DNA from: a virus | Taxonomy: Duplodnaviria > Heunggongvirae > Uroviricota > Caudoviricetes | Virus record (IMG/VR): IMGVR_UViG_2703718800_000013 | Coordinates: 1-8,755 of that record | Length of the DNA: 8,755 nt | Strand: one strand, 5' to 3' | Program-made: the position numbers and the translations under genes | Shown: positions 1 to 8,755 of the stretch, piece by piece | Layout: each line of letters begins with the position of its first letter | Position numbering within the stretch: position 1 is the stretch's first letter | The notes under the pieces: model-generated | Told to the model about the DNA's origin: nothing | The model's database searches: none | The model's input: the letters and a program-made list of their open reading frames with translations, nothing else

Positions 1-1
1 C

Positions 2-1024
2 CAGCGCCTGCCCGGTTCGCAGCCGGGCGTGAATGAAACCACCCTGAATGCCATTGCGTATGCACAGGCGGGGCTGTCAGCACAGGAGCATGAACATCTG
101 GCCTGGATCTCCCGGCAGATAATTCCGACAGAAGCTGATGAAGCCGAACTCCTGAAACACTGCGCATTCTGGGGTGTCATCCGTAAACCGGCTTCCCGCG
201 CTGACGGACCGGTACAACTGATGCTGACCACGGATGCAGGGATCACGGAAGGCGTACTCCTTCAGCGAAGCGATGGTGTTGTGTACCGCATCACTGGCTC
301 TGCGACCGGAAAAGCCGGAACACTGAATGTTAATGTGGAGGCGGAAAGTGCGGGGCGCGCCGGAAATACCCCGACCGGAACCCGCCTGTCCTTTATCACA
401 CCACAGGCGGGCATCAACCAGACAGCCACGGTCACCGGCACGGGACTCACCGGTGGTGCGGATGTGGAAACGGTGCCGGAGTTGCTGTCCAGGCTGGTAT
501 TCCGGGTACAGAACCCGCCATCAGGGGGAACACAGTATGATTTTGAACGCTGGGCACGGGAAGTACCTGGCGTGACGCGGGCATGGTGTAAGCCTGAATG
601 GCCTGAGGCTGGTAGTGTTGGTGTGACTTTTGTTCAGGATAATAACCCTGACATTTTCCCCGGGGAAGGTGATGTGAAGCGGGTGGCGGATTATATCCGC
701 AGTCATGATGATCCGGCGACGGGCCAGCCCGTTGGTCAGCCACTTGGGCCGACAATCAGCGTGTTTAAGCTGACCAATAAGCCGGTGGTGTTTGAGATAA
801 GGATTGTACCCAAAACGCCGGAAAATCAGGCTGCCGTAAAACAGGCATTAACGGACCTGCTTTATAACGAATCGCGGCCGGGTGGACTTGTATTGCCTTC
901 ATCATTCTGGCGGGCTGTTGCAGGGGTGAAAGGACTGGAGGATTTTGAAGTTCGCAGCCCGCTGAAGTCCGTGATGGCCGGAGATACAGAGTTGCTGACC
1001 GTGGGGGAAATCACATGGCTGTAA
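2..1024 (+). CDS. Baseplate J-like protein (Mu gp47 / P2 gpJ family), probably 5'-partial
   Basis: Long ORF ending TAA at 1022-1024. The first in-window start is GTG at 29, but the frame stays open back to position 2, so the true start may lie upstream of the window. Family assignment rests mainly on gene order (immediately upstream of a DUF2313-like gene and the tail fibre) plus recalled resemblance; not verified by search. Confidence 0.6.
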   Translation, partial: QRLPGSQPGVNETTLNAIAYAQAGLSAQEHEHLAWISRQIIPTEADEAELLKHCAFWGVIRKPASRADGPVQLMLTTDAGITEGVLLQRSDGVVYRITGSATGKAGTLNVNVEAESAGRAGNTPTGTRLSFITPQAGINQTATVTGTGLTGGADVETVPELLSRLVFRVQNPPSGGTQYDFERWAREVPGVTRAWCKPEWPEAGSVGVTFVQDNNPDIFPGEGDVKRVADYIRSHDDPATGQPVGQPLGPTISVFKLTNKPVVFEIRIVPKTPENQAAVKQALTDLLYNESRPGGLVLPSSFWRAVAGVKGLEDFEVRSPLKSVMAGDTELLTVGEITWL

Positions 1025-1572
1025 CCCTGACCCCGCATCAGCGCGCCCTGTTGCAGTTGCTGCCTGACGGGCTGGTATGGGATAAGCGGCCGTCATCCGT
1101 TCTTGCGGCTTTGTGCCTGGGCCTCAGTCATTCCACGGAGCGTGTTTCCTGGACCGGCAACCAGATGCTGGCAGAACGTTTTCCTGATTCATCCCGTCTG
1201 CTGCTGGAAGACTGGGAGCGTTATCTGGGGTTACCGGAATGTGATATGACCGGCGCAACCATTCAGGAGCGTCAGCGTTATGCCGGGAATAAATACCGGA
1301 TGAAACCCTCTCTTAACCGTGAATTTTATATCCGGTTTGCGGCAGAGTTTGGTTATGAAATAGATATCCAGCCATCACCGGAATCACAATGGATCAGTAT
1401 TGTGACAGTGAAGACAGCGGTTGGATACCGTCACATGAATGTACTGGACGATATTCTTACGCCACTGCGAATTTATGATGCAAGTGCGCTGGAGTGCATT
1501 TTAAACCGTTATAAGCCAGCCTGGCAGACGTTTTTATATCTGTACGAAAACAGTCATGAGGAGACGGAGTGA
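1015..1572 (+). CDS. Phage tail/baseplate protein, Mu gp48 / YmfQ-like (DUF2313 family)
   Basis: 185-aa ORF. Its ATG at 1015 overlaps the upstream stop (ATGGCTGTAA), suggesting translational coupling. Size and position between the baseplate J-like gene and the tail fibre match the Mu-type late operon. Confidence 0.6.
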   Translation: MAVTLTPHQRALLQLLPDGLVWDKRPSSVLAALCLGLSHSTERVSWTGNQMLAERFPDSSRLLLEDWERYLGLPECDMTGATIQERQRYAGNKYRMKPSLNREFYIRFAAEFGYEIDIQPSPESQWISIVTVKTAVGYRHMNVLDDILTPLRIYDASALECILNRYKPAWQTFLYLYENSHEETE

Positions 1573-2468
1573 TGTATTTTGTCGACAACAATTCAGGTGT
1601 GACCGATATGCCACCACTGGCCCCCTCACAGGGCACGCAGGTTAAATGGTTTACTGAAGGTGACGGACGCAAAGGGATCAGCCATATAGGTCAGGACTGG
1701 CTGAACATCGTGCAGGCAGAGCTGCTTGCCATTCTGACAGAAGGACAGGTTCAGCCGGATAAGGCAAAACTGAACCAGCTGGTGATAGCCATTAAGGCAA
1801 TCATTGCAGCAAACGCATACAGCCGGAAAAACAACCTTAAGGAGATTGCGGATGCAGGTGCAGAAGCACAGGCTGCTGCCCGCCGTCATCTTGGGCTTGG
1901 AGGATTATCAGGAAAAGACAGCCTGGCTGCTAATGATGTGGGAGCACTGGAGAAATCCATGAATTTTGGCGATGTACCGGATAAAACCTCGGCCCGCCAG
2001 AATCTGGATGTTTACAGCAAGAGCGAAGGTGATAACCGTTATCTGCGCAAGGATCAGAATGGCGCGGATATCGCGGACAAAGGAACCTTTATCGATAACG
2101 TCGGTTTACGGGAAACGGTAAATAAGGCGGCGAATGCCCTGCCATCGGACGGCACCGCTGCGGCAGCGAATAAACTCGCCACCCCAAGAAATATTAATGG
2201 TGTTCCTTTCGACGGGACGCAGGATATCAGCATTACTTCAGGGATGACGGAATCAACAGCCAATCAGCGTTATGTTACAGGGGTAAGACTGGGAGCGCAG
2301 GCATTAAGCGGCGGACTGGAATATAATTACTCCCTGTCATCAGGAAATGTGATTACCGGTTTTAAGACTGACGGAGACTGGGAAATGCGTAGTGGTGATG
2401 ACCGTGTTTATTACAGACAGATACAATATTGTATTAATGGGAATTGGGTATCCGCTGCAAGTATTTAA
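1569..2468 (+). CDS. Tail fibre protein (Mu S-like), current orientation; constant N-terminal part plus invertible C-terminal part
   Basis: 299-aa ORF. The likely start is ATG at 1572, preceded by GAGGAG at 1558-1563 (GTG at 1569 is the first in-frame start). The N-terminus (MYFVDNNSGVTDMPPL...WFTEGDG) resembles the conserved phage tail-fibre N-terminal domain. Codon GTC 2100-2102 carries the recombination core, and the C-terminal ~72 aa differ from the alternative cassette on the minus strand. Confidence 0.85.
   Translation: MMYFVDNNSGVTDMPPLAPSQGTQVKWFTEGDGRKGISHIGQDWLNIVQAELLAILTEGQVQPDKAKLNQLVIAIKAIIAANAYSRKNNLKEIADAGAEAQAAARRHLGLGGLSGKDSLAANDVGALEKSMNFGDVPDKTSARQNLDVYSKSEGDNRYLRKDQNGADIADKGTFIDNVGLRETVNKAANALPSDGTAAAANKLATPRNINGVPFDGTQDISITSGMTESTANQRYVTGVRLGAQALSGGLEYNYSLSSGNVITGFKTDGDWEMRSGDDRVYYRQIQYCINGNWVSAASI
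2089..2114. promoter_or_regulatory. Left crossover site for the DNA invertase (gix/hix-like 26-bp site)
   Basis: TTATCGATAACG-TC-GGTTTACGGGAA: two imperfect 12-bp half-sites around the core dinucleotide TC (2101-2102). It resembles recalled hix/gix sites, and inverted-repeat identity begins exactly at the core. Confidence 0.7.
2101..2249. repeat. Left arm of a perfect 149-bp inverted repeat flanking the invertible segment
   Basis: The reverse complement of 3379-3527 matches 2101-2249 in every block I compared by hand. The mirror-image ORFs in the track (2054..2263 minus and 3395..3580 plus share a 44-aa identical stretch) are a direct consequence. Confidence 0.95.
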
Positions 2469-2567
2469 TTAACGGCTCATGGCGTACGGCAGGCAGCGCC
2501 TGATATATGTGTTATCTCAGACAATCCCTGTCCGTATATAGCGATAGTATTATTCCTGTTTTTATCA

Positions 2568-3110
2568 TTGATTCACATGGTGATGTTTATGCAACTGATT
2601 AATGTTAAACGATATTACCCGGAAAACACCCTCTATGGTAATGATGTACAGTATTTTCAGAGTGAAGATGGTAAGGATTTCTACGAGTCCCTGCCATTAT
2701 TCACCAAAAAATATAAACTTTGTATAACACCTGACAGCGGCATTATCTGCTCAATATCACAGGACGCTTCGGCGCTGTATCCTGCGGGGTTCTCTGTGGT
2801 TGAAGTCGACGAACTCCCTGAAGGTGCTGATATTTCGGGTAACTGGAAGTTTGATAATGGCGTGATCTCCCGTATTCCGGTTAACTACGCAAGAAAACTG
2901 GAAGCAATGCGCCAGTTATATCTTAATCAGGCATATGAAAAAATTAATGACTGGAGAACAGAATTACAGCTGGGCACCATCAGTGATGAAGACAGAGCCG
3001 CACTTACCCGATGGATGGCATACATCAGTCAGGTGAAAAAAATGGAACCATCCGCCATTAAAACTGAAGCTGAATTTGATGCCATTAAATGGCCCGAACA
3101 GCCTGAATAA
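2568..3110 (+). CDS. Tail fibre assembly protein (Mu U / Tfa family chaperone)
   Basis: 180-aa ORF with several possible starts (TTG 2568; ATG 2577, 2583, 2589). Blocks SEDGKDFYE, DASALYPAGFSVVEV and a C-terminal WPEQPE match the recalled pattern of Mu U/Tfa proteins. Confidence 0.8.
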   Translation: MIHMVMFMQLINVKRYYPENTLYGNDVQYFQSEDGKDFYESLPLFTKKYKLCITPDSGIICSISQDASALYPAGFSVVEVDELPEGADISGNWKFDNGVISRIPVNYARKLEAMRQLYLNQAYEKINDWRTELQLGTISDEDRAALTRWMAYISQVKKMEPSAIKTEAEFDAIKWPEQPE

Positions 3111-3113
3111 CTT

Positions 3114-3143
3114 AAAGGGTGCTTATCGCACCCTTTTTCTTTC
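3114..3143. terminator. Intrinsic terminator between tfa and the minus-strand cassette, possibly bidirectional
   Basis: AAAGGGTGC (3114-3122), loop TTATC, GCACCCTTT (3128-3136), then TTTTTCTTTC on the + strand. It sits 3 bp after the tfa stop and ends just before the minus-strand cassette stop at 3145-3147. Confidence 0.6.
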
Positions 3144-3144
3144 A

Positions 3145-3527
3145 TCAGACAGATGAAACTGTACGCCATGCATTACTGATATATATCTGCACAGGACGGA
3201 AATAAACCCCGCCAATGTTATCGGCAGAGTTTTTTCCTGTTTCCTGCACGTTAATACCGGAAAGCATACAACCGGAAGGCGCACTGTAATTCCATGACAT
3301 TTCATTGCCTCCGGGTGAATGATAGCTCTGTGCTCCAAGCTGAACGTTCTGTACATACCGGTCATCTGCGGTTGACTGCGTCATCCCTGAAGTAATGCTG
3401 ATATCCTGCGTCCCGTCGAAAGGAACACCATTAATATTTCTTGGGGTGGCGAGTTTATTCGCTGCCGCAGCGGTGCCGTCCGATGGCAGGGCATTCGCCG
3501 CCTTATTTACCGTTTCCCGTAAACCGA
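3145..3527 (-). CDS. Alternative tail-fibre C-terminal cassette (Sv'-like), silent in this orientation
   Basis: The minus-strand frame is open from the core at 3526-3527 through the inverted repeat (encoding the same 49 aa as the + copy) into a distinct ~77-aa C-terminus (MTQSTADDRYVQNVQLGAQ...), which parallels the + copy (MTESTANQRYVTGVRLGAQ...). It has no start codon or RBS of its own at its 5' end. Confidence 0.75.
3379..3527. repeat. Right arm of the perfect 149-bp inverted repeat
   Basis: Reverse complement of 2101-2249. Confidence 0.95.
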
Positions 3528-3539
3528 GGTTTCAGGGAT
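3514..3539. promoter_or_regulatory. Right crossover site for the DNA invertase (gix/hix-like)
   Basis: TTCCCGTAAACC-GA-GGTTTCAGGGAT, with core GA (3526-3527) that is the inverse of the left-site core TC. The inner half-site equals the reverse complement of the left site's inner half-site. It lies directly upstream of the invertase gene, as gixR does relative to gin. Confidence 0.7.
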
Positions 3540-3593
3540 GCCGTATATCTGCTTTAAAAGGCCTTTCCACCTCTTTTTAAGGAAGGTAAATAC

Positions 3594-4154
3594 ATGCTGA
3601 TTGGCTATATACGCGTATCAACAAATGACCAGAACACAGGTTTACAAAGAAATGCGCTGGAATGTGCAGGATGTGAGCAGATTTTTGAAGATAAAATGAG
3701 CGGAAAAACAACACAGCGGCCGGGACTGAAGCGGGCACTGAAGAAACTAAAACCCGGTGACACGCTGATGGTCTGGAAACTGGACAGGCTGGGGCGCAGT
3801 ATGCGCCACCTTGTTGCGCTGACAGATGAATTACAGCAACAGGGGATAAATTTTCGTAGTCTTACTGACAGCATTGATACGTCAACCCCCATGGGGCGCT
3901 TCTTTTTTCACATAATGGGTGCGCTGGCAGAAATGGAGCGTGAATTGATTGTCGAACGGACACGGGCTGGTCTTGCAGCTGCCCGTGAAAGGGGACGAAC
4001 CGGCGGCAGACCCCGTCGTCTCACGCAGGAACAATACGAGCAGGTCGGGCGTTTACTGGCCGGGGGTGTCAGCCGAAGACAGGCGGCACTTATTTTTGAT
4101 ATCGGCCTTTCAACCCTTTATCGTTATTTTCCTGCGAGCGTTTCGGAAAAATAA
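3594..4154 (+). CDS. gin: Serine-recombinase DNA invertase (Gin/Pin/Cin/Hin family)
   Basis: 186-aa ORF with RBS AAGGAAGG upstream. The N-terminus MLIGYIRVSTNDQNT carries the catalytic Ser, and a C-terminal helix-turn-helix region is present. The protein is near-collinear with Mu Gin as I recall it, and its position next to the invertible segment fits. Confidence 0.95.
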   Translation: MLIGYIRVSTNDQNTGLQRNALECAGCEQIFEDKMSGKTTQRPGLKRALKKLKPGDTLMVWKLDRLGRSMRHLVALTDELQQQGINFRSLTDSIDTSTPMGRFFFHIMGALAEMERELIVERTRAGLAAARERGRTGGRPRRLTQEQYEQVGRLLAGGVSRRQAALIFDIGLSTLYRYFPASVSEK

Positions 4155-4244
4155 GACGCTCCCTTTGTTGGGCCTTTACTGAATTAACGCAAAATGGCGT
4201 TTATCGGTCTGTGGATATGATAATTCTGTTTATTCAGGAACAGG

Positions 4245-6326
4245 ATGAATATTATGACGTCCAAATGGGTTCAACTATCATCAATGCCCGGAAACTTTAC
4301 CGTTAAAGTTTCCGGTGGTACAGCGGCATTTCTTGAGGCTCCCTTTCCTCCGGCTGAAACGAAAGGAGGTATGACATTTGCTGACTGTCTCATCAGTTTT
4401 AATACACGGGATTGCCTGTGGGTAAGGCCAGTATCCGGTGATCCGAACGTGGAAATTACCGGAGCGGGTATTGGTGCTGTCATTCCGTTAAGTGCTGATG
4501 TTGCCGGTACTACTGAACCGTCAGACTGGAACAATGCGGAAACATACACTTCCTCAGCAGGAGATAAAGTTGCAGGTCAAACTCCGTCCTGGTATTACGT
4601 GGTTGTTATTGCTGGTCAGTCGAATGCATCGTCATTTGGTGAAGGTCTTCCTTTGCCTGATACCTATGATCGACCTGATCCACGTATTAAACAGCTGGCT
4701 CGCCGTAACACGGTTACACCTGGCGGGGTTGAATGCGCCTACAACGATATAATTCCGGCAGATCACTGTCTTCATGATGTGCTGGATATGAGTAACCATA
4801 ATCATCCAAAAGCAGATCTTTCAAAAGGTCAGTATGGTTGTGTCGGCCAGGGTTTGCATATTGCAAAAAAACTCCTGCCCTTTATCCCGGAAGAGGCTGG
4901 TATCCTTCTGGTTCCCTGTGCCAGAGGAGGCTCTGCATTTACCGATGGTGCTGATGGTGAATTTACTGAAGCTTCCGGAGCAACATCTGCATCATCGCGC
5001 TGGGGAGTCAATAAACCTTTGTTCAGCGATCTTGTTAACCGAACAAAAGCGGCTCTCAGCAGTAACCCCAGAAATATTCTCCTGTCCGTTGTCTGGATGC
5101 AGGGCGAGAATGATCTGAAAACAGGAAAACATGCTGAACATTCCGGTCTGTTTGTGACGATGGTCGAAACATTCAGGCGTGAACTTTCGGCTTTTTCTGC
5201 GCAATCTCCAGCCGGAGATATGGCTTCTGTACCGTGGATCTGTGGTGATACGACGTATTACTGGAAAAATACATATCCAGAACAATACAAAGCTGTTTAT
5301 GGCAAATATGCTAATGAAGCAAAGAACATTCACTTTGTTCCATTTGTTGTGGATGAAAATGGAAAAAATGTACCGACAAATAATCCAGATGAAGACCCGG
5401 ATATTCCAGGTATTGGCTATTATGGTGCCATAAGTCGCGATTCGACTAACTGGACATCAAACGACAGGGCAAGCCATTTCAGTTCATGGGCGCGCCGTGG
5501 AATTATTTCAGACCGTCTGGCAACAGCGATTCTGACATTGTCAGGACAAAAATCTGCTTTCTTCCGCGGTGTAACGGCAACAGAACATTCTGATACCGGT
5601 AAGAGTGAGCCTGAACCCACCGGGGATGTGAAGGACGTGAGCGATCAGATGAAGATCATCGTTTCGTATACTGCAAACGCCCCGACAGAACCAATGAAAG
5701 ATCAGGGGTGGAATGCGGCTTCCGGAAAAGCAACCTTTGTCACGGATGCTGCTGCAACAGGTGGTAACAAAGCGTTAAGGGTGAATAAAGCGCCTAACAG
5801 CATGGCCTCATGGAAAATGTATCATCCGATCACAGCTGATAATGCCAGGGATTTGTTCGCCAGAGGTGGTGATATTTCCCTCCGTTTCAAAATTCCATCG
5901 GATGCGGGCATTGCGGAAAACCGGTATGGTGTTGGTATTTACTGGGCTGTAAGTAACTGGCCTGACGGTGACGGAAAAAATAACCTCATCGCATCATGTT
6001 TCCTGCAAACGGATTCAGCTAACCTGAATGTGATGTATCACAAAGGGAGCGGAAGTCAACAGATAGGATCGTATGGTGTCTTTGATCATGAATGGCATAC
6101 GCTCTCGTTACGGTTTGCAGGTGGTAATAGCATGAGTGTTACCCCAGTTCTGGACGGGAAAGATGGTGAACCATTTGAACTTGTGAAGTGGGTGAATGCC
6201 GGGTTCACGGTGGATCAACTGACACTGACCGATATTACCGGCAATGCAGCCACTTACCCGATGTTGTTTGACACAATTAAAGTGCAGGTTAACGATGCGG
6301 TCTCTTCGTCTAATGTGAATAAATGA
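4245..6326 (+). CDS. SASA/SGNH-family carbohydrate esterase (sialate O-acetylesterase-like; NanS-p-like) with an N-terminal extension and a C-terminal lectin-like domain
   Basis: 693-aa ORF. The GQSN nucleophile motif is encoded at nt 4614-4625, a QGEND block at about 5099-5113, and a downstream D-x3-H (SNDRASHF) follows, the three signature blocks of SASA-type esterases. The ~250-aa C-terminal region looks like a beta-sandwich carbohydrate-binding domain (inference). An alternative start is ATG at 4254. Confidence 0.75.
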   Translation: MNIMTSKWVQLSSMPGNFTVKVSGGTAAFLEAPFPPAETKGGMTFADCLISFNTRDCLWVRPVSGDPNVEITGAGIGAVIPLSADVAGTTEPSDWNNAETYTSSAGDKVAGQTPSWYYVVVIAGQSNASSFGEGLPLPDTYDRPDPRIKQLARRNTVTPGGVECAYNDIIPADHCLHDVLDMSNHNHPKADLSKGQYGCVGQGLHIAKKLLPFIPEEAGILLVPCARGGSAFTDGADGEFTEASGATSASSRWGVNKPLFSDLVNRTKAALSSNPRNILLSVVWMQGENDLKTGKHAEHSGLFVTMVETFRRELSAFSAQSPAGDMASVPWICGDTTYYWKNTYPEQYKAVYGKYANEAKNIHFVPFVVDENGKNVPTNNPDEDPDIPGIGYYGAISRDSTNWTSNDRASHFSSWARRGIISDRLATAILTLSGQKSAFFRGVTATEHSDTGKSEPEPTGDVKDVSDQMKIIVSYTANAPTEPMKDQGWNAASGKATFVTDAAATGGNKALRVNKAPNSMASWKMYHPITADNARDLFARGGDISLRFKIPSDAGIAENRYGVGIYWAVSNWPDGDGKNNLIASCFLQTDSANLNVMYHKGSGSQQIGSYGVFDHEWHTLSLRFAGGNSMSVTPVLDGKDGEPFELVKWVNAGFTVDQLTLTDITGNAATYPMLFDTIKVQVNDAVSSSNVNK

Positions 6327-6355
6327 CGGGTAATTCATTTTATTTAAAATGGTGA

Positions 6356-6541
6356 GTGATTATGCCAATACTACATACATTTATGCTTTATTTTTGCACG
6401 TGTGTGTGTCTGCTTTATCTCCTCAGCGGAGGTTACAAAATTATCCGAAATTATTTTCGAAATAAAATTGATGCAGCCGCAGAGGAAAAGATAAAAAGCG
6501 GTGCTGTAATGCCGCAGCCGAAAGACTCCGGTCAGATTTAA
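6356..6541 (+). CDS. Hypothetical small protein with a hydrophobic N-terminus (questionable)
   Basis: 61-aa ORF in an A+T-rich intergenic-looking stretch with a weak RBS. The hydrophobic N-terminal 25 aa might be a membrane helix, but this could equally be a non-coding leader or promoter region. Confidence 0.25.
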   Translation: MIMPILHTFMLYFCTCVCLLYLLSGGYKIIRNYFRNKIDAAAEEKIKSGAVMPQPKDSGQI

Positions 6542-6576
6542 TTTTTTGTGAACCAGAAAAGGAAAGGAGAATATTC

Positions 6577-6822
6577 ATGCCAGAGATTAAAGGCACGGTT
6601 ACTGAAGAGCTTGTCAAACAGGCACTTTATTCTGAAGAAGTGAACCGCGTGCTGAAGGCGCAGGTTCGCAAGGATTTTGAGGCACAAATCGACGCATATG
6701 TTGATGAAGTGCTGGCCCGAATGGTTGGCCATTCTCCGGCTGAAAACAGCACGGAGAATGAGCCTCAGCCCGTAGAGCAACCAGAGCCGGTTCAGCCCGG
6801 AACTGACAGTGCCATGATGTAA
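6577..6822 (+). CDS. Hypothetical small acidic protein
   Basis: 81-aa ORF with a strong RBS (AAAGGAAAGGAGA, 7 nt before the ATG). It has a helical-looking N-terminal half and a Pro/Glu-rich tail. I do not recognise a family. Confidence 0.55.
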   Translation: MPEIKGTVTEELVKQALYSEEVNRVLKAQVRKDFEAQIDAYVDEVLARMVGHSPAENSTENEPQPVEQPEPVQPGTDSAMM

Positions 6823-6896
6823 CAATACAAACCGACAGCTTCTCCTGTCGGTTTGATTTTCATGGGCGATGTATATACCAGTCAGAGGAAATAATC

Positions 6897-7097
6897 ATGG
6901 ACAAGAACAAAAAGCAGCCCGATACCAAAGGTCTGGAAATATTAAGCGCAGAAATTATCAATGCGCTACGTTCAGGACTTGATGAAAATACATTACAGGA
7001 TCGAAACTTCACCACTGCAATGTGGATAGCGATGCAGATCCTGTGTACCCCAAGATGCGCTATTTTTGCGGTTCGTGAGGGTCAGTTGACTCGCTGA
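6897..7097 (+). CDS. Hypothetical small protein
   Basis: 66-aa ORF with RBS GAGGAA 7 nt upstream. No family recognised. Confidence 0.5.
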   Translation: MDKNKKQPDTKGLEILSAEIINALRSGLDENTLQDRNFTTAMWIAMQILCTPRCAIFAVREGQLTR

Positions 7098-7266
7098 TTG
7101 CCCGAATTACATCAGAAAAGCACGCGTTCCATAATTGCATAGCTGATGAATCACCAGCTGTATGAAAAGAGGTAAAGACACAACTGGTGGATGTCATTGC
7201 TGCAATTGTGATATCAGCTGCAATTCGCGCAGCCTGTAACTTTTGGTCGGTGGTCAGTTTATCCAT
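7060..7266 (-). CDS. Hypothetical small protein, convergent with and overlapping the 3' end of the 6897..7097 ORF
   Basis: The ORF track gives 7060..7290; an internal ATG at 7266 has a much better RBS (AGGAGAAA). Codon usage looks plausible, but no family is recognised and a + strand terminator downstream implies antisense read-through. Confidence 0.35.
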   Translation of the reverse strand: MDKLTTDQKLQAARIAADITIAAMTSTSCVFTSFHTAGDSSAMQLWNACFSDVIRAISESTDPHEPQK

Positions 7267-7380
7267 TTTCTCCTGCCTGAACAGATGCATCTCTGCTTTA
7301 CAGGAGGCCGGGGAATATCATAGGATACACCACGAGCTCAGAGTGAAGCATTGATGCAGTTTTTTACAGATTGACCCAGA

Positions 7381-7417
7381 ACCCAGCATAGTTCCAGCTA
7401 TGCTGGGTTTCCCTTTT
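7381..7417 (+). terminator. Rho-independent terminator (+ strand)
   Basis: Perfect 11-bp stem ACCCAGCATAG (7381-7391) / CTATGCTGGGT (7398-7408) with loop TTCCAG, followed by TTCCCTTTTAT. Confidence 0.55.
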
Positions 7418-7640
7418 ATGTAGTATCCTGTTGATTTGAAACATACTACATATACGCGCGATCCTACCTTCACTGGATAAAAAGGCAATAAAATGATCAT
7501 TTTATGATCGTTTTCACCACCTAACTCTTCGTTTTCTTTAAGTAAATAATCACCGCCCTGAATCATTGTTGATGACTTTTCAATCTATTTGTTGTATCAA
7601 TTAAACAAATCGAATCGATCGTTTTTGTCGATCGATTGCA
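7418..7640. promoter_or_regulatory. Candidate com-mom regulatory region with palindromes and clustered GATC sites
   Basis: A 9-bp inverted repeat ATGTAGTAT (7418-7426) / ATACTACAT (7443-7451). Five GATC sites at 7460, 7495, 7506, 7617 and 7630. A second palindrome AATCGATCG (7612-7620) / CGATCGATT (7628-7636) embeds two of them. A weak possible promoter is ATGACT (7573-7578), 16 bp, TATCAA (7595-7600). Confidence 0.4.
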
Positions 7641-7680
7641 TGAGAAAGGCATCAACAACAAAGCAGGAGGTTATGCGGCC

Positions 7681-7881
7681 ATGTATCGAAACATACGGTG
7701 CCGACACTGCAATAAGCTACTGGCACGGGCCAGTTTCAGTTATCTGGAAGTAAAATGTCCGCGCTGTAAAACCCTCAATCAAATCACATCTCCGAGCGCC
7801 ACAGAGCACCCCACATACACAAGGAAATCCTGTCGTGGGGAACAGAAAGCAAGTCACATCCCGTATCATCAGCACGCCTGA
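7681..7881 (+). CDS. com: Com, zinc-finger translational activator of mom
   Basis: 66-aa product [14 protein letters not shown]...KCPRCK with CxxC-x15-CxxC spacing like Mu Com. AGGAGG at 7665-7670 precedes the ATG at 7681; the track start at 7636 lacks an RBS. The 3' end overlaps the mom start. Confidence 0.8.
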
Positions 7882-8572
7882 ACTTATTCGCTATAACGAC
7901 AATATCGTTGGTTATGGCTCCCGTGAGTTGCGGGTTGAGACAATAAGTTGCTGGCTGGCCAGACTGGTCATCGTCAATAAACATTACAGCCACCGTTTCG
8001 TAAATAACTCCTACCTTCATCTGGGCATATTTTCAGAACGGGAACTTGTTGGCGTAATGCAATGGGGTTACGCCCTTAACCCAAACAGTGGTGCACGCGT
8101 CGTAACGGGTACGCAGAACCGAGAATATATGGAGCTTAACCGGCTATGGCTGCATGACTGTATGCCGAGAAACTCCGAATCAAGGGCAATCAGTTACGCG
8201 CTCAAGCTAATCAGGCAGCTTTATCCGCAGGTACAGTGGGTTCAGTCGTTTGCAGATGAGCGTTGTGGCTGTCTTGGTGTCGTGTATCAGGCAAGCAATT
8301 TTGATTATGTAGGCAGCCATGAAACAATATTCTATGAACTTGATGGCGAGTGGTATCACGAGATTTGCAGGAATGCCATTAAACGAGGCGGACAACGAGG
8401 TGAACATCTGAGGGCTAATATCGACAGAGCCAGTGTGCATAAGTTCCGACAGTTTCGTTACATCCGGTTTCTGAACAAGAGGGCCAGAAAACGCCTCAAC
8501 ACAAAGCTATTCAAAGTCCAGCCTTACCCAAAACCACAAACAGTTAAAACTGGTTTGAAAGAGAGTGAATGA
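7835..8572 (+). CDS. mom: Mom, DNA modification (adenine carbamoylmethylation) anti-restriction protein
   Basis: 245-aa ORF starting at GTG 7835, inside the 3' end of com in another frame; this is the com-mom arrangement of Mu. Its size and its position at the phage right end fit. The exact start codon is uncertain. Confidence 0.8.
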
Positions 8573-8602
8573 GCGCTTAAAAACTCATTCTAAAACTCAA
8601 AA

Positions 8603-8649
8603 GAAAAGCGCCGATTTAGTATCAAATAAGTTGCGTATCGGCGTTTTTC
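8603..8649. repeat. 13-bp imperfect inverted repeat downstream of mom (terminator-like or protein-binding)
   Basis: GAAAAGCGCCGAT (8603-8615) pairs with ATCGGCGTTTTTC (8637-8649) with one G-U equivalent, across a 21-nt spacer. It may be the mom terminator or paired end-binding sites. Confidence 0.3.
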
Positions 8650-8755
8650 ATCGGAATCAAATGAAATGCAAATCGGTATCAAAAAAATCGCCGCGCTATA
8701 TGATGCTTTGTTCCGTAGGGCAACATTACCCCGGTTTTGAAACGGATATTCACGG

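Follow-up and report, generated by a model that had tools for sequence, protein, structure and literature searches.

A conserved GATC-bearing palindrome as candidate Dam-sensitive OxyR operator of a com-mom operon in a Mu-like Escherichia coli prophage

Introduction

Modification of the Mom type shields phage DNA against many restriction enzymes, and is toxic when mistimed. Because the modification is protective yet toxic at the wrong time, how mom is kept silent matters for the conflict between phage and host. At the mom promoter of phage Mu (Pmom), which carries three GATC sites, OxyR (MomR) represses unmethylated DNA and the protein C activates transcription; knowledge of such control by Dam and OxyR dates from the 1980s in the case of Mu, and from ~2000-2010 in that of agn43 and gtr. 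The locus studied here, i.e. the com-mom operon encoded within 8,755 nucleotides of viral DNA (IMGVR_UViG_2703718800_000013, positions 1 to 8,755; hereafter the window), raises the question of whether a comparable lock operates outside Mu and, if so, which of the GATC sites upstream of com belong to it. The original prediction regarded five such sites as one GATC-dense, Dam-sensitive control region with the epigenetic logic of Mu in a different layout. The comparisons presented below point to a narrower answer: the palindrome at 7613-7637, carrying two of these sites, is likely to represent a Dam-methylation-sensitive OxyR operator for com-mom.

Results and discussion

Paired GATC sites within a palindrome upstream of com

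The locus is the com-mom operon of a Mu-like prophage. The window corresponds to the right end of a Mu-like E. coli prophage, at which a zinc-ribbon com gene and mom, both intact open reading frames, overlap (the start of mom with the end of com), and the gene order was shown to be Mu-like in the related sequences L112 and L001 (compared sequences are referred to by L numbers). As in Mu, com thus overlaps mom at the right end of a transposable prophage which also carries a C-family gene, and Com exhibited 45% identity to Mu Com in a MAFFT alignment (45.8% by tblastn). The features relevant to its control are as follows:

7572-7680, plus strand: com regulatory module, delimited by a mosaic boundary and the com start codon
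7596-7610: candidate partner OxyR half-site ATCAattaaacAAAT (6/10), its centre 22 bp upstream of the core; holds the 10-mer ATCAATTAAA, also present in Mu
7613-7637: perfect 9-bp inverted repeat AATCGATCG-TTTTTGT-CGATCGATT (arms 7613-7621 and 7629-7637), the proposed Dam-sensitive operator
7618-7632: core ATCG-N7-CGAT, ATCGtttttgtCGAT, matching one OxyR dimer half-site (consensus ATAGnTnnnAnCTAT, 7/10), with GATC at 7617-7620 and 7630-7633, 13 bp apart
7628-7655, plus strand: best-guess weak core promoter at a presumed position, with -35-like TCGATC (7628-7633), a 16-bp spacer and -10-like CATCAA (7650-7655)
7665-7670, plus strand: com ribosome-binding site AGGAGG, read directly from the sequence and invariant in the class A and B alignment described below
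7681-7881, plus strand: com, zinc-ribbon translational activator of 66 aa (Pfam Zn_ribbon_Com PF10122, E 2e-12)
7835-8572, plus strand: mom, adenine-modification enzyme (Pfam Mom PF25680, E 1.4e-77; PGAP annotation in L001)

GATC sites are located at 7460, 7495, 7506, 7617 and 7630, exactly where the original prediction had placed them, within a region that is AT-rich (GC content of 34% vs 48%). The claim that they are denser than chance would allow was borne out for two of the five only. The window as a whole is not rich in GATC (29 sites, ~34 expected), and at least five sites within some 175-bp stretch were observed in 209 of 2000 dinucleotide-preserving shuffles (10%), so that the five-site cluster is not significant by itself. 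The proximal pair at 7617 and 7630, in contrast, exceeds chance: CGATCG occurs twice in the window, both times inside the palindrome, and CGATCG-N7-CGATCG is expected 0.0004 times. Furthermore, ATCG-N7-CGAT occurs a single time in the 50 kb spanning a whole related prophage, as does any GATC-N9-GATC. The palindrome itself, which comprises 25 bp with a 7-nt spacer and one GATC per arm, was confirmed to be perfect and to lie just upstream of the com ribosome-binding site, with its two GATC sites placed symmetrically.

At 7618-7632, two GATC sites are embedded in a match to an OxyR dimer half-site, the arrangement that marks Dam/OxyR promoters of the mom, agn43, gtr and opvAB type. Together with the candidate partner half-site, the region 7596-7632 scored 13/20 on a scale for two half-sites 7 nt apart (compared with 13 for Mu, 13 for gtr and 14 for agn43), on a consensus that is degenerate and in a region that is AT-rich. 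The four best two-half-site scores across the 8.7-kb window (13-14/20 for this degenerate, AT-rich motif) all start at 7565-7596. OxyR sites were scored by simple consensus matching, and the three validated GATC-bearing operators were taken as a more specific comparison than a weight matrix of K-12 sites.

Resemblance to characterised Dam-sensitive OxyR sites

An almost identical core was observed in the regulatory region of agn43 (flu) of E. coli K-12 (cGATCaatatctattttatcGATCgtttatatcGATCgataag). The agn43 core TCGATCGTTTATATCGATCGAT is identical to TCGATCGTTTTTGTCGATCGAT of the window at 20 of 22 positions, and to the class B relatives described below at 23 of 25 (manual count). GATC sites 2 and 3 of agn43 are spaced 13 bp apart in the design ATCGtttatatCGAT, and a single OxyR repressor site is located near or overlapping the core promoter. 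The two systems differ in that agn43 possesses a third GATC 19 bp upstream and regulates an adhesin rather than a DNA-modification operon; moreover, agn43 has a strong promoter (TTGTCC-17-TAGAAT, with the annotated start at GATC-I), immediately downstream of which its operator is placed, whereas no strong promoter was seen in the window. Published work summarises agn43 as a single repressing OxyR site, binding to which is abrogated by methylation, and also lists Mu mom as under Dam and OxyR control (PMC2909390).

The gtr switch of phage P22 and Salmonella, like the window a prophage-borne system, carries two GATC pairs, both with the sequence GATCG-N7-CGATC (ATCGgtaacaaCGAT and ATCGcttgtatCGAT). 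These pairs begin at -110/-97 and -46/-33, i.e. 13 bp apart, and each is situated inside one OxyR dimer half-site, for which the consensus is ATAGxTxxxAxCTAT; OxyR no longer binds once Dam has methylated the DNA, and bound OxyR in turn blocks Dam (PMC2909390). The proximal pair overlaps the -35 element, with TCGATC-17-TACACT in gtr, the transcription start of which has been published (PMC2909390), and TCGATC-16-TATCAT or CATCAA here. However, gtr employs two GATC pairs and three half-sites, which allow alternative activating (AB) and repressing (BC) OxyR positions, whereas the window has one pair.

In Mu, the proximal pair (GATC2 and GATC3) exhibits the same 13-bp spacing and the same flanks, TCGATCG-N6-nGATCGATT. 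The Mu element reads TCGATCG-N6-AGATCGATT, with the core ATCGgtaatacAGAT, and the 10-mer ATCAATTAAA is common to Mu and the window upstream of it. The palindrome element probably shares an ancestor with the Mu mom control region. The notion that the epigenetic logic of Mu has been kept finds support in the proximal pair, which matches both the Mu Dam/OxyR element and the agn43 core, and does not extend to the three distal sites.

Because agn43, both gtr pairs and Mu all carry the same design, ATCG-N7-CGAT with 13-bp GATC spacing is the common signature of every characterised Dam-sensitive OxyR site inspected, and the presence of this signature in the window, together with its identity to the known operators, was demonstrated directly. 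As an aid to annotation, GATCG-N7-CGATC represents a simple and specific search key for candidate Dam/OxyR switches.

A scan of IMG/VR with CGATCG-N7-CGATCGAT returned matches that were mostly in GC-rich coding DNA and, for a minority, in AT-rich intergenic DNA. AT-rich intergenic matches with a third GATC nearby and located away from com were found in L150/L153/L189/L215/L232, L230/L163/L216, L186 and L144, and these non-com sites may be regarded as candidates for further Dam/OxyR switches.

Conservation of the element among com loci

To describe the com-bearing relatives, loci were assigned to class A (window-type), class B (Citrobacter-type) or class C (phage Chuche and Salmonella prophages), and mosaic boundaries were derived from a comparison with 60 related loci. 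The com regulatory module was shown to start near 7572, as homology of L038 and L043-L050 covers 7572-8000 only, while many relatives share 7285-8000. In a 400-bp alignment of classes A and B, with a mean column identity of 57%, positions 7616-7636 (CGATC.TTTTT.TCGATCGAT) represent the longest invariant non-coding block upstream of com. The element precedes com in Mu and in all three classes:

Mu: TCGATCGgtaatacAGATCGATT
Window: TCGATCGtttttgtCGATCGATT
Class B: ACGATCGtttttatCGATCGATA
Class C: CCGATCGataaaaaCGATCGATT

While the arms of the palindrome are fixed, the 7-nt AT-rich spacer varies (TTTTTGT, TTTTTAT, ATAAAAA or GTAATAC), which is the pattern expected of a dimer site contacted in its arms. 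A 13-bp-spaced GATC pair was identified in 33 of 79 distinct com upstream regions, these 33 representing the three enterobacterial-type classes, Mu and the distant L100 (with different flanks and, like Mu, 18/13 spacing). Among the 79 regions, the pair was missing at the com loci of Haemophilus-, Pseudomonas- and Acinetobacter-type phages. Of 5426 complete E. coli genomes, 233 contained a match to the region 7300-7700, and Shiga toxin-producing E. coli (STEC) strains account for many of the best matches. These data suggest that the classic Dam/OxyR lock of Mu is not peculiar to that phage, and is conserved in a common E. coli prophage lineage.

It could be argued that the palindrome arose by chance, or that it is a relic in decay and devoid of present function, given that the -10 candidate of the window is degenerate and that some relatives (L042, L068, L007, L082 and L086) have lost sites or the entire operator. 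This is barely credible in view of the strict conservation of the element across diverged lineages while its flanks diverge, its negligible expected count given above, and the intact com and mom reading frames with a conserved ribosome-binding site.

Three of these relatives, L007, L082 and L086 (~1440-1470 in each), are variants of class C that have lost 31 bp, namely those separating the first GATCGAT repeat from the third. This deletion leaves one or zero GATC before the same -10 TATCAT, and the three loci thus provide natural operator-less alleles.

The invariance of the arms also bears on the proposition that the inverted repeat acts as a nucleic-acid hairpin, i.e. as a stem-loop in a com 5' leader (with a start near 7607 from ATGACT-17-TATCAA) or as a leftward terminator. 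The 25-nt hairpin is stable alone (-10.2 kcal/mol, z -3.4) and terminator-like on the minus strand in a consensus scan, and the required upstream promoter candidate is present, if weak (score of 4.2 in the window and 5.5 in L043). However, as the arms never vary, no compensatory change supports pairing, and one arm of the Mu element is imperfect, yet its GATC sites and their spacing are kept. The stem is mixed in AT and GC, its minus-strand tail is a poor T-run (CGATTTGTTT), and the whole putative leader folds no better than shuffles (z -1.1). Each arm is, furthermore, self-complementary (ATCGAT and CGATCG), as expected of GATC-centred protein sites. A hairpin function is accordingly deemed highly improbable.

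A compact geometry that differs from Mu

The distances between the GATC sites and the com ATG were compared using Mu promoter coordinates derived from the AF083977 annotation and sequence, and from oligonucleotide sequences in PMC4461284. These distances are 109, 91 and 78 nt in Mu, 107, 89 and 76 nt in L100, and (82,) 64-65 and 51-52 nt in classes A, B and C. There are, consequently, two discrete geometries, in which the last GATC is located either 51-52 nt (classes A, B and C) or 76-78 nt (Mu and L100) from the com ATG. In the window this distance is 51 nt, making the interval 27 nt shorter than that of Mu. The distal GATC of Mu, 18 bp upstream, is missing in the window, where the equivalent 18-19 bp position reads AATT/CAAT; of the three-GATC 18/13 spacing found in Mu, L100 and class C, the window has the 13-bp pair only. 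The GATC1-GATC2 spacing of Mu is confirmed by an 18-bp PvuI fragment (PMC3378877).

The stretch between the last GATC of Mu and com accommodates the C dyad (TTAT-N6-ATAA) and a promoter made up of a poor -35, the -10 TAAGAT and, between them, a 19-bp spacer that includes a T6 run, a layout with which the tin7 oligonucleotide agrees (PMC4461284). The corresponding interval of the window contains neither a TTAT-N6-ATAA C site nor ATAAC 28 nt upstream of -10, and neither a T6 run nor a promoter with a 19-bp spacer. The 'different site layout' put forward in the original prediction consequently needs to be divided: the proximal pair retains the spacing and flanks of Mu, while the missing distal GATC, the missing Mu-type C site and the distance of 51 rather than 78 nt are genuine differences.

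The distant L100 (1397-1506) keeps the Mu layout (L003 1092-1203), with 18/13 spacing, the last GATC 44 nt before -10 and a Com of ~49% identity, as well as ATAAC 28 nt upstream of -10, as in Plys and Pmom of Mu; its flanks are otherwise different. That L100 retains this exact layout despite differing flanks is an argument for selection acting on the Mu-type geometry itself.

The Mu operator is situated at about -54 to -87, upstream of the site bound by C, a position which the window operator cannot occupy. With only 51 nt separating the last GATC from the ATG, the window operator must overlap the core promoter, abut it or be situated in early transcribed DNA. In class A, the variants L036 and L051 carry TCGATC-16-TATCAT at the place equivalent to the best-guess promoter of the window, mirroring TCGATC-17-TACACT of gtr, and classes B and C possess a good -10 located 7 nt after the last GATC (TATACT; TGnTATCAT with a -35 TCGATA, score of 9.4). 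The known agn43 and gtr promoters, which served as controls, were recovered by the same scoring. As only CATCAA is found at the -10 place of the window and no plus-strand candidate scores above 5.3, we infer a promoter at this position that is weak and probably dependent on an activator.

What is new compared with the earlier systems is the conservation of the element across a prophage lineage, the existence of two discrete geometries, and the compact two-GATC form of the window without a recognisable Mu-type C site.

The C-type activator and other potential ligands of the palindrome

A C-family late activator is encoded by the same prophage type: the right end of a related prophage matches the window at 99.8% identity over 7300-7700, and in that prophage the lysozyme gene is directly preceded, in a part beyond the window, by a Mor/C-family gene, the product of which (WP_000852377.1) is 39% identical to Mu C (E 4e-35). 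Within this whole related prophage TTAT-N6-ATAA is absent, and Mu-type ATAACCCC/GGGGTTAT is present inside coding regions only. No 8- or 9-mers were found to be common to the com upstream region and the lys or I upstream regions or other late intergenic gaps. Given its 39% identity to Mu C, the C homologue may recognise a different sequence, and activation of com by C itself is possible.

This divergence is also what lends some appeal to the explanation that the palindrome binds a protein other than OxyR, such as the C-type activator, another phage regulator to which the GATC sites are incidental, or SeqA. A perfect dyad beside a weak promoter is typical of a site for an activator or repressor dimer, the C site of Mu abuts GATC3, and a C homologue as diverged as this one could have its own site. 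SeqA binds paired hemimethylated GATC sites, a 13-bp spacing falls within the range it accepts, and its binding would tie expression to replication. However, ATCG-N7-CGAT or GATC-N9-GATC, occurring once in the 50 kb that hold the whole related prophage, is not common to other late promoters served by C, and no k-mer is shared with the lys or I upstream regions, which C must also activate; in addition, the element is found at com of integrase-type non-Mu phages (Chuche) and at the host-controlled agn43 and gtr, which are without such a phage activator. Because the motif is unique in the prophage, shares no k-mers with these regions and is present at non-Mu com, agn43 and gtr, the C-site version was rated low, and binding of another protein with OxyR uninvolved is, overall, considered unlikely.

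Proposed mechanism of com-mom control

In the proposed OxyR model, when GATC 7617 and 7630 are unmethylated or hemimethylated, an OxyR tetramer would occupy the core at 7618-7632 and the weaker half-site at 7596-7610, and OxyR bound across 7596-7632 would keep the toxic mom operon off. Full Dam methylation of both sites would exclude OxyR and leave the weak promoter free to fire, probably aided by the C-type late activator of the prophage, after which Com would switch on translation of mom. As the operator covers or adjoins the core promoter instead of being placed at -54 to -87, direct occlusion of RNA polymerase is envisaged as the mode of repression, with the operator overlapping the -35 and spacer (as for OxyR(BC) of gtr) or the early transcribed region (as for agn43). 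OxyR binding, the effect of methylation and the role of the activator are what we infer from the observed signature, conservation and compact geometry.

Several observations weigh against this model. The OxyR consensus is degenerate and AT-rich, so that scores in an AT-rich region are weak, and the partner half-site matches at 6 of 10 positions only. The GATC sites number two, compared with three in mom and agn43, and the effect of methylation might be too small. The promoter scan identified no plus-strand candidate in the window above 5.3, and the -10 candidate at 7650-7655 (CATCAA) is without the key -7 T and scores poorly. Motif and k-mer searches of the prophage found no binding site for the C homologue, which makes the activator step a guess. 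Finally, a literature search found no report of methylation, regulation, binding or expression for this prophage com locus, a result of limited weight as its coverage was partial.

In the compact form the operator coincides with the core promoter, an arrangement known from the phase-variable genes agn43 and gtr, which renders bistable expression of modification genes in lysogens a directly testable possibility. A bolder version, which we regard as a rather doubtful possibility, is that the mom-type operon of this lineage has dropped the C-dependent promoter architecture of Mu and that the single GATC pair on its core promoter forms a heritable ON/OFF switch resembling those of agn43 and gtr. 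In that case, some of the lysogens in a population would express com together with a swappable modification gene (mom here; Dcm-type or other methyltransferases in relatives), and prophages would carry a phase-variable (bistable) DNA-modification cassette driven by Dam and OxyR.

Such swapping is apparent among relatives. Near-identical com is followed, in place of mom, by a Dcm-type cytosine methyltransferase in L002, L053 and L054, and in Chuche another DNA methyltransferase takes the place of mom (relevant coordinates L002 3529-4581 and L004 2643-3434). As near-identical com precedes different methyltransferases, com and its operator thus behave as a fixed control module ahead of a swappable DNA-modification gene. 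Homology of the window to these relatives stops at ~7848, within the com/mom overlap.

The distal GATC sites belong to a separate upstream module

The three distal GATC sites (7460, 7495 and 7506) were shown to fall in a separable mosaic module, 7285-7571, which is absent from L038 and L043-L050, relatives that keep the com module from 7572 rightward. Their conservation is partial, with 7460 lost in L051, 7506 lost in L055, and none of the three kept in register in L056 and L059. Within this module, one further feature is relevant to these sites:

7461-7488, minus strand: candidate leftward sigma-70 promoter TTGCCT-16-TAGGAT (score of 9.2)

Relatives with a different spacer, including L055, retain this promoter in the form TTGACT-16-TAGGAT or TAAGAT. 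GATC 7460 overlaps the end of its -10, and GATC 7495 and 7506 are located just upstream of its -35; on account of the former overlap, the leftward promoter could itself be Dam-sensitive.

The proposal that all five sites (7460-7633) constitute one extended Dam-sensitive control region of com-mom must be judged against this background. Five GATC sites in 175 bp of AT-rich DNA are locally dense, and switches with distal and proximal site pairs controlled by Dam and OxyR or by Dam and Lrp exist, e.g. gtr and pap (PMC2909390). Yet com-bearing relatives lack the module in which the distal three reside, individual distal sites are lost in other relatives, clusters of this density arise in the shuffles described above, and the distal sites fit the conserved leftward promoter better. 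A single five-site region is thus very unlikely, and the treatment of all five as one unit was not sustained: the five GATC sites are two separate things, of which the distal three are not part of the com switch.

The module looks non-coding. The minus-strand open reading frame at 7318-7566 (PGAP 'frameshifted hypothetical protein') was treated as non-coding, as it had no Pfam match and its frame was not kept in L032 or L055. The leftward promoter is directed at small variable minus-strand genes starting near 7290/7266, beside the mosaic boundary at 7285. For these, the minus-strand open reading frame at 7060-7290 gave no Pfam match and the 68-aa product of that at 7060-7266 no tblastn match in phages. 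An Rfam scan of 6700-7900 (E up to 1) returned chance-level matches only.

On the plus strand, a promoter-like TTTACA-18-TAGGAT at 7297-7326 is followed by a strong terminator (stem at 7379-7410 and T tail), and the 7297-7420 unit could encode a small RNA of ~85 nt that would be antisense to the leftward transcript's leader. The 7379-7410 hairpin exhibits compensatory changes in L055, L056 and L059. The unit has no match in Rfam, and duplications of it were observed in L001 (72 extra bp) and L056. At 7417-7426 / 7443-7452, two 10-bp arms separated by 16 nt, TATGTAGTAT ... ATACTACATA, form a perfect inverted repeat that is conserved in class A loci.

Further features of the prophage

Upstream of the com-mom operon, the window encodes the following:

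Within the window: baseplate and tail-fibre genes
3594-4154: Gin-type recombinase
4245-6326: DUF6645/SASA-esterase gene, 693 aa, with a SASA (sialate O-acetylesterase-like) domain and DUF6645
Between the 4245-6326 gene and com: two small DUF genes

The 4245-6326 gene, located between the Gin-type recombinase and com, has no counterpart in Mu at that position and is, for this reason, probably a moron or accessory gene.

The 99.8% identical match over 7300-7700 is found in E. coli strain 48, inside a complete Mu-like prophage which encodes a repressor, ner, transposase A and B, gam, a Mor/C-family gene, a lysozyme gene, and head and tail genes. In this strain, the Mu-like prophage has interrupted a lambdoid prophage in one of its tail genes and is flanked by the two halves of the split 'phage tail protein' (L112 2472-2948 and L001 10476-10586), and the Stx-phage records LC727881 and LC727895 carry an annotation of a similar 'inserted Mu-like phage'.

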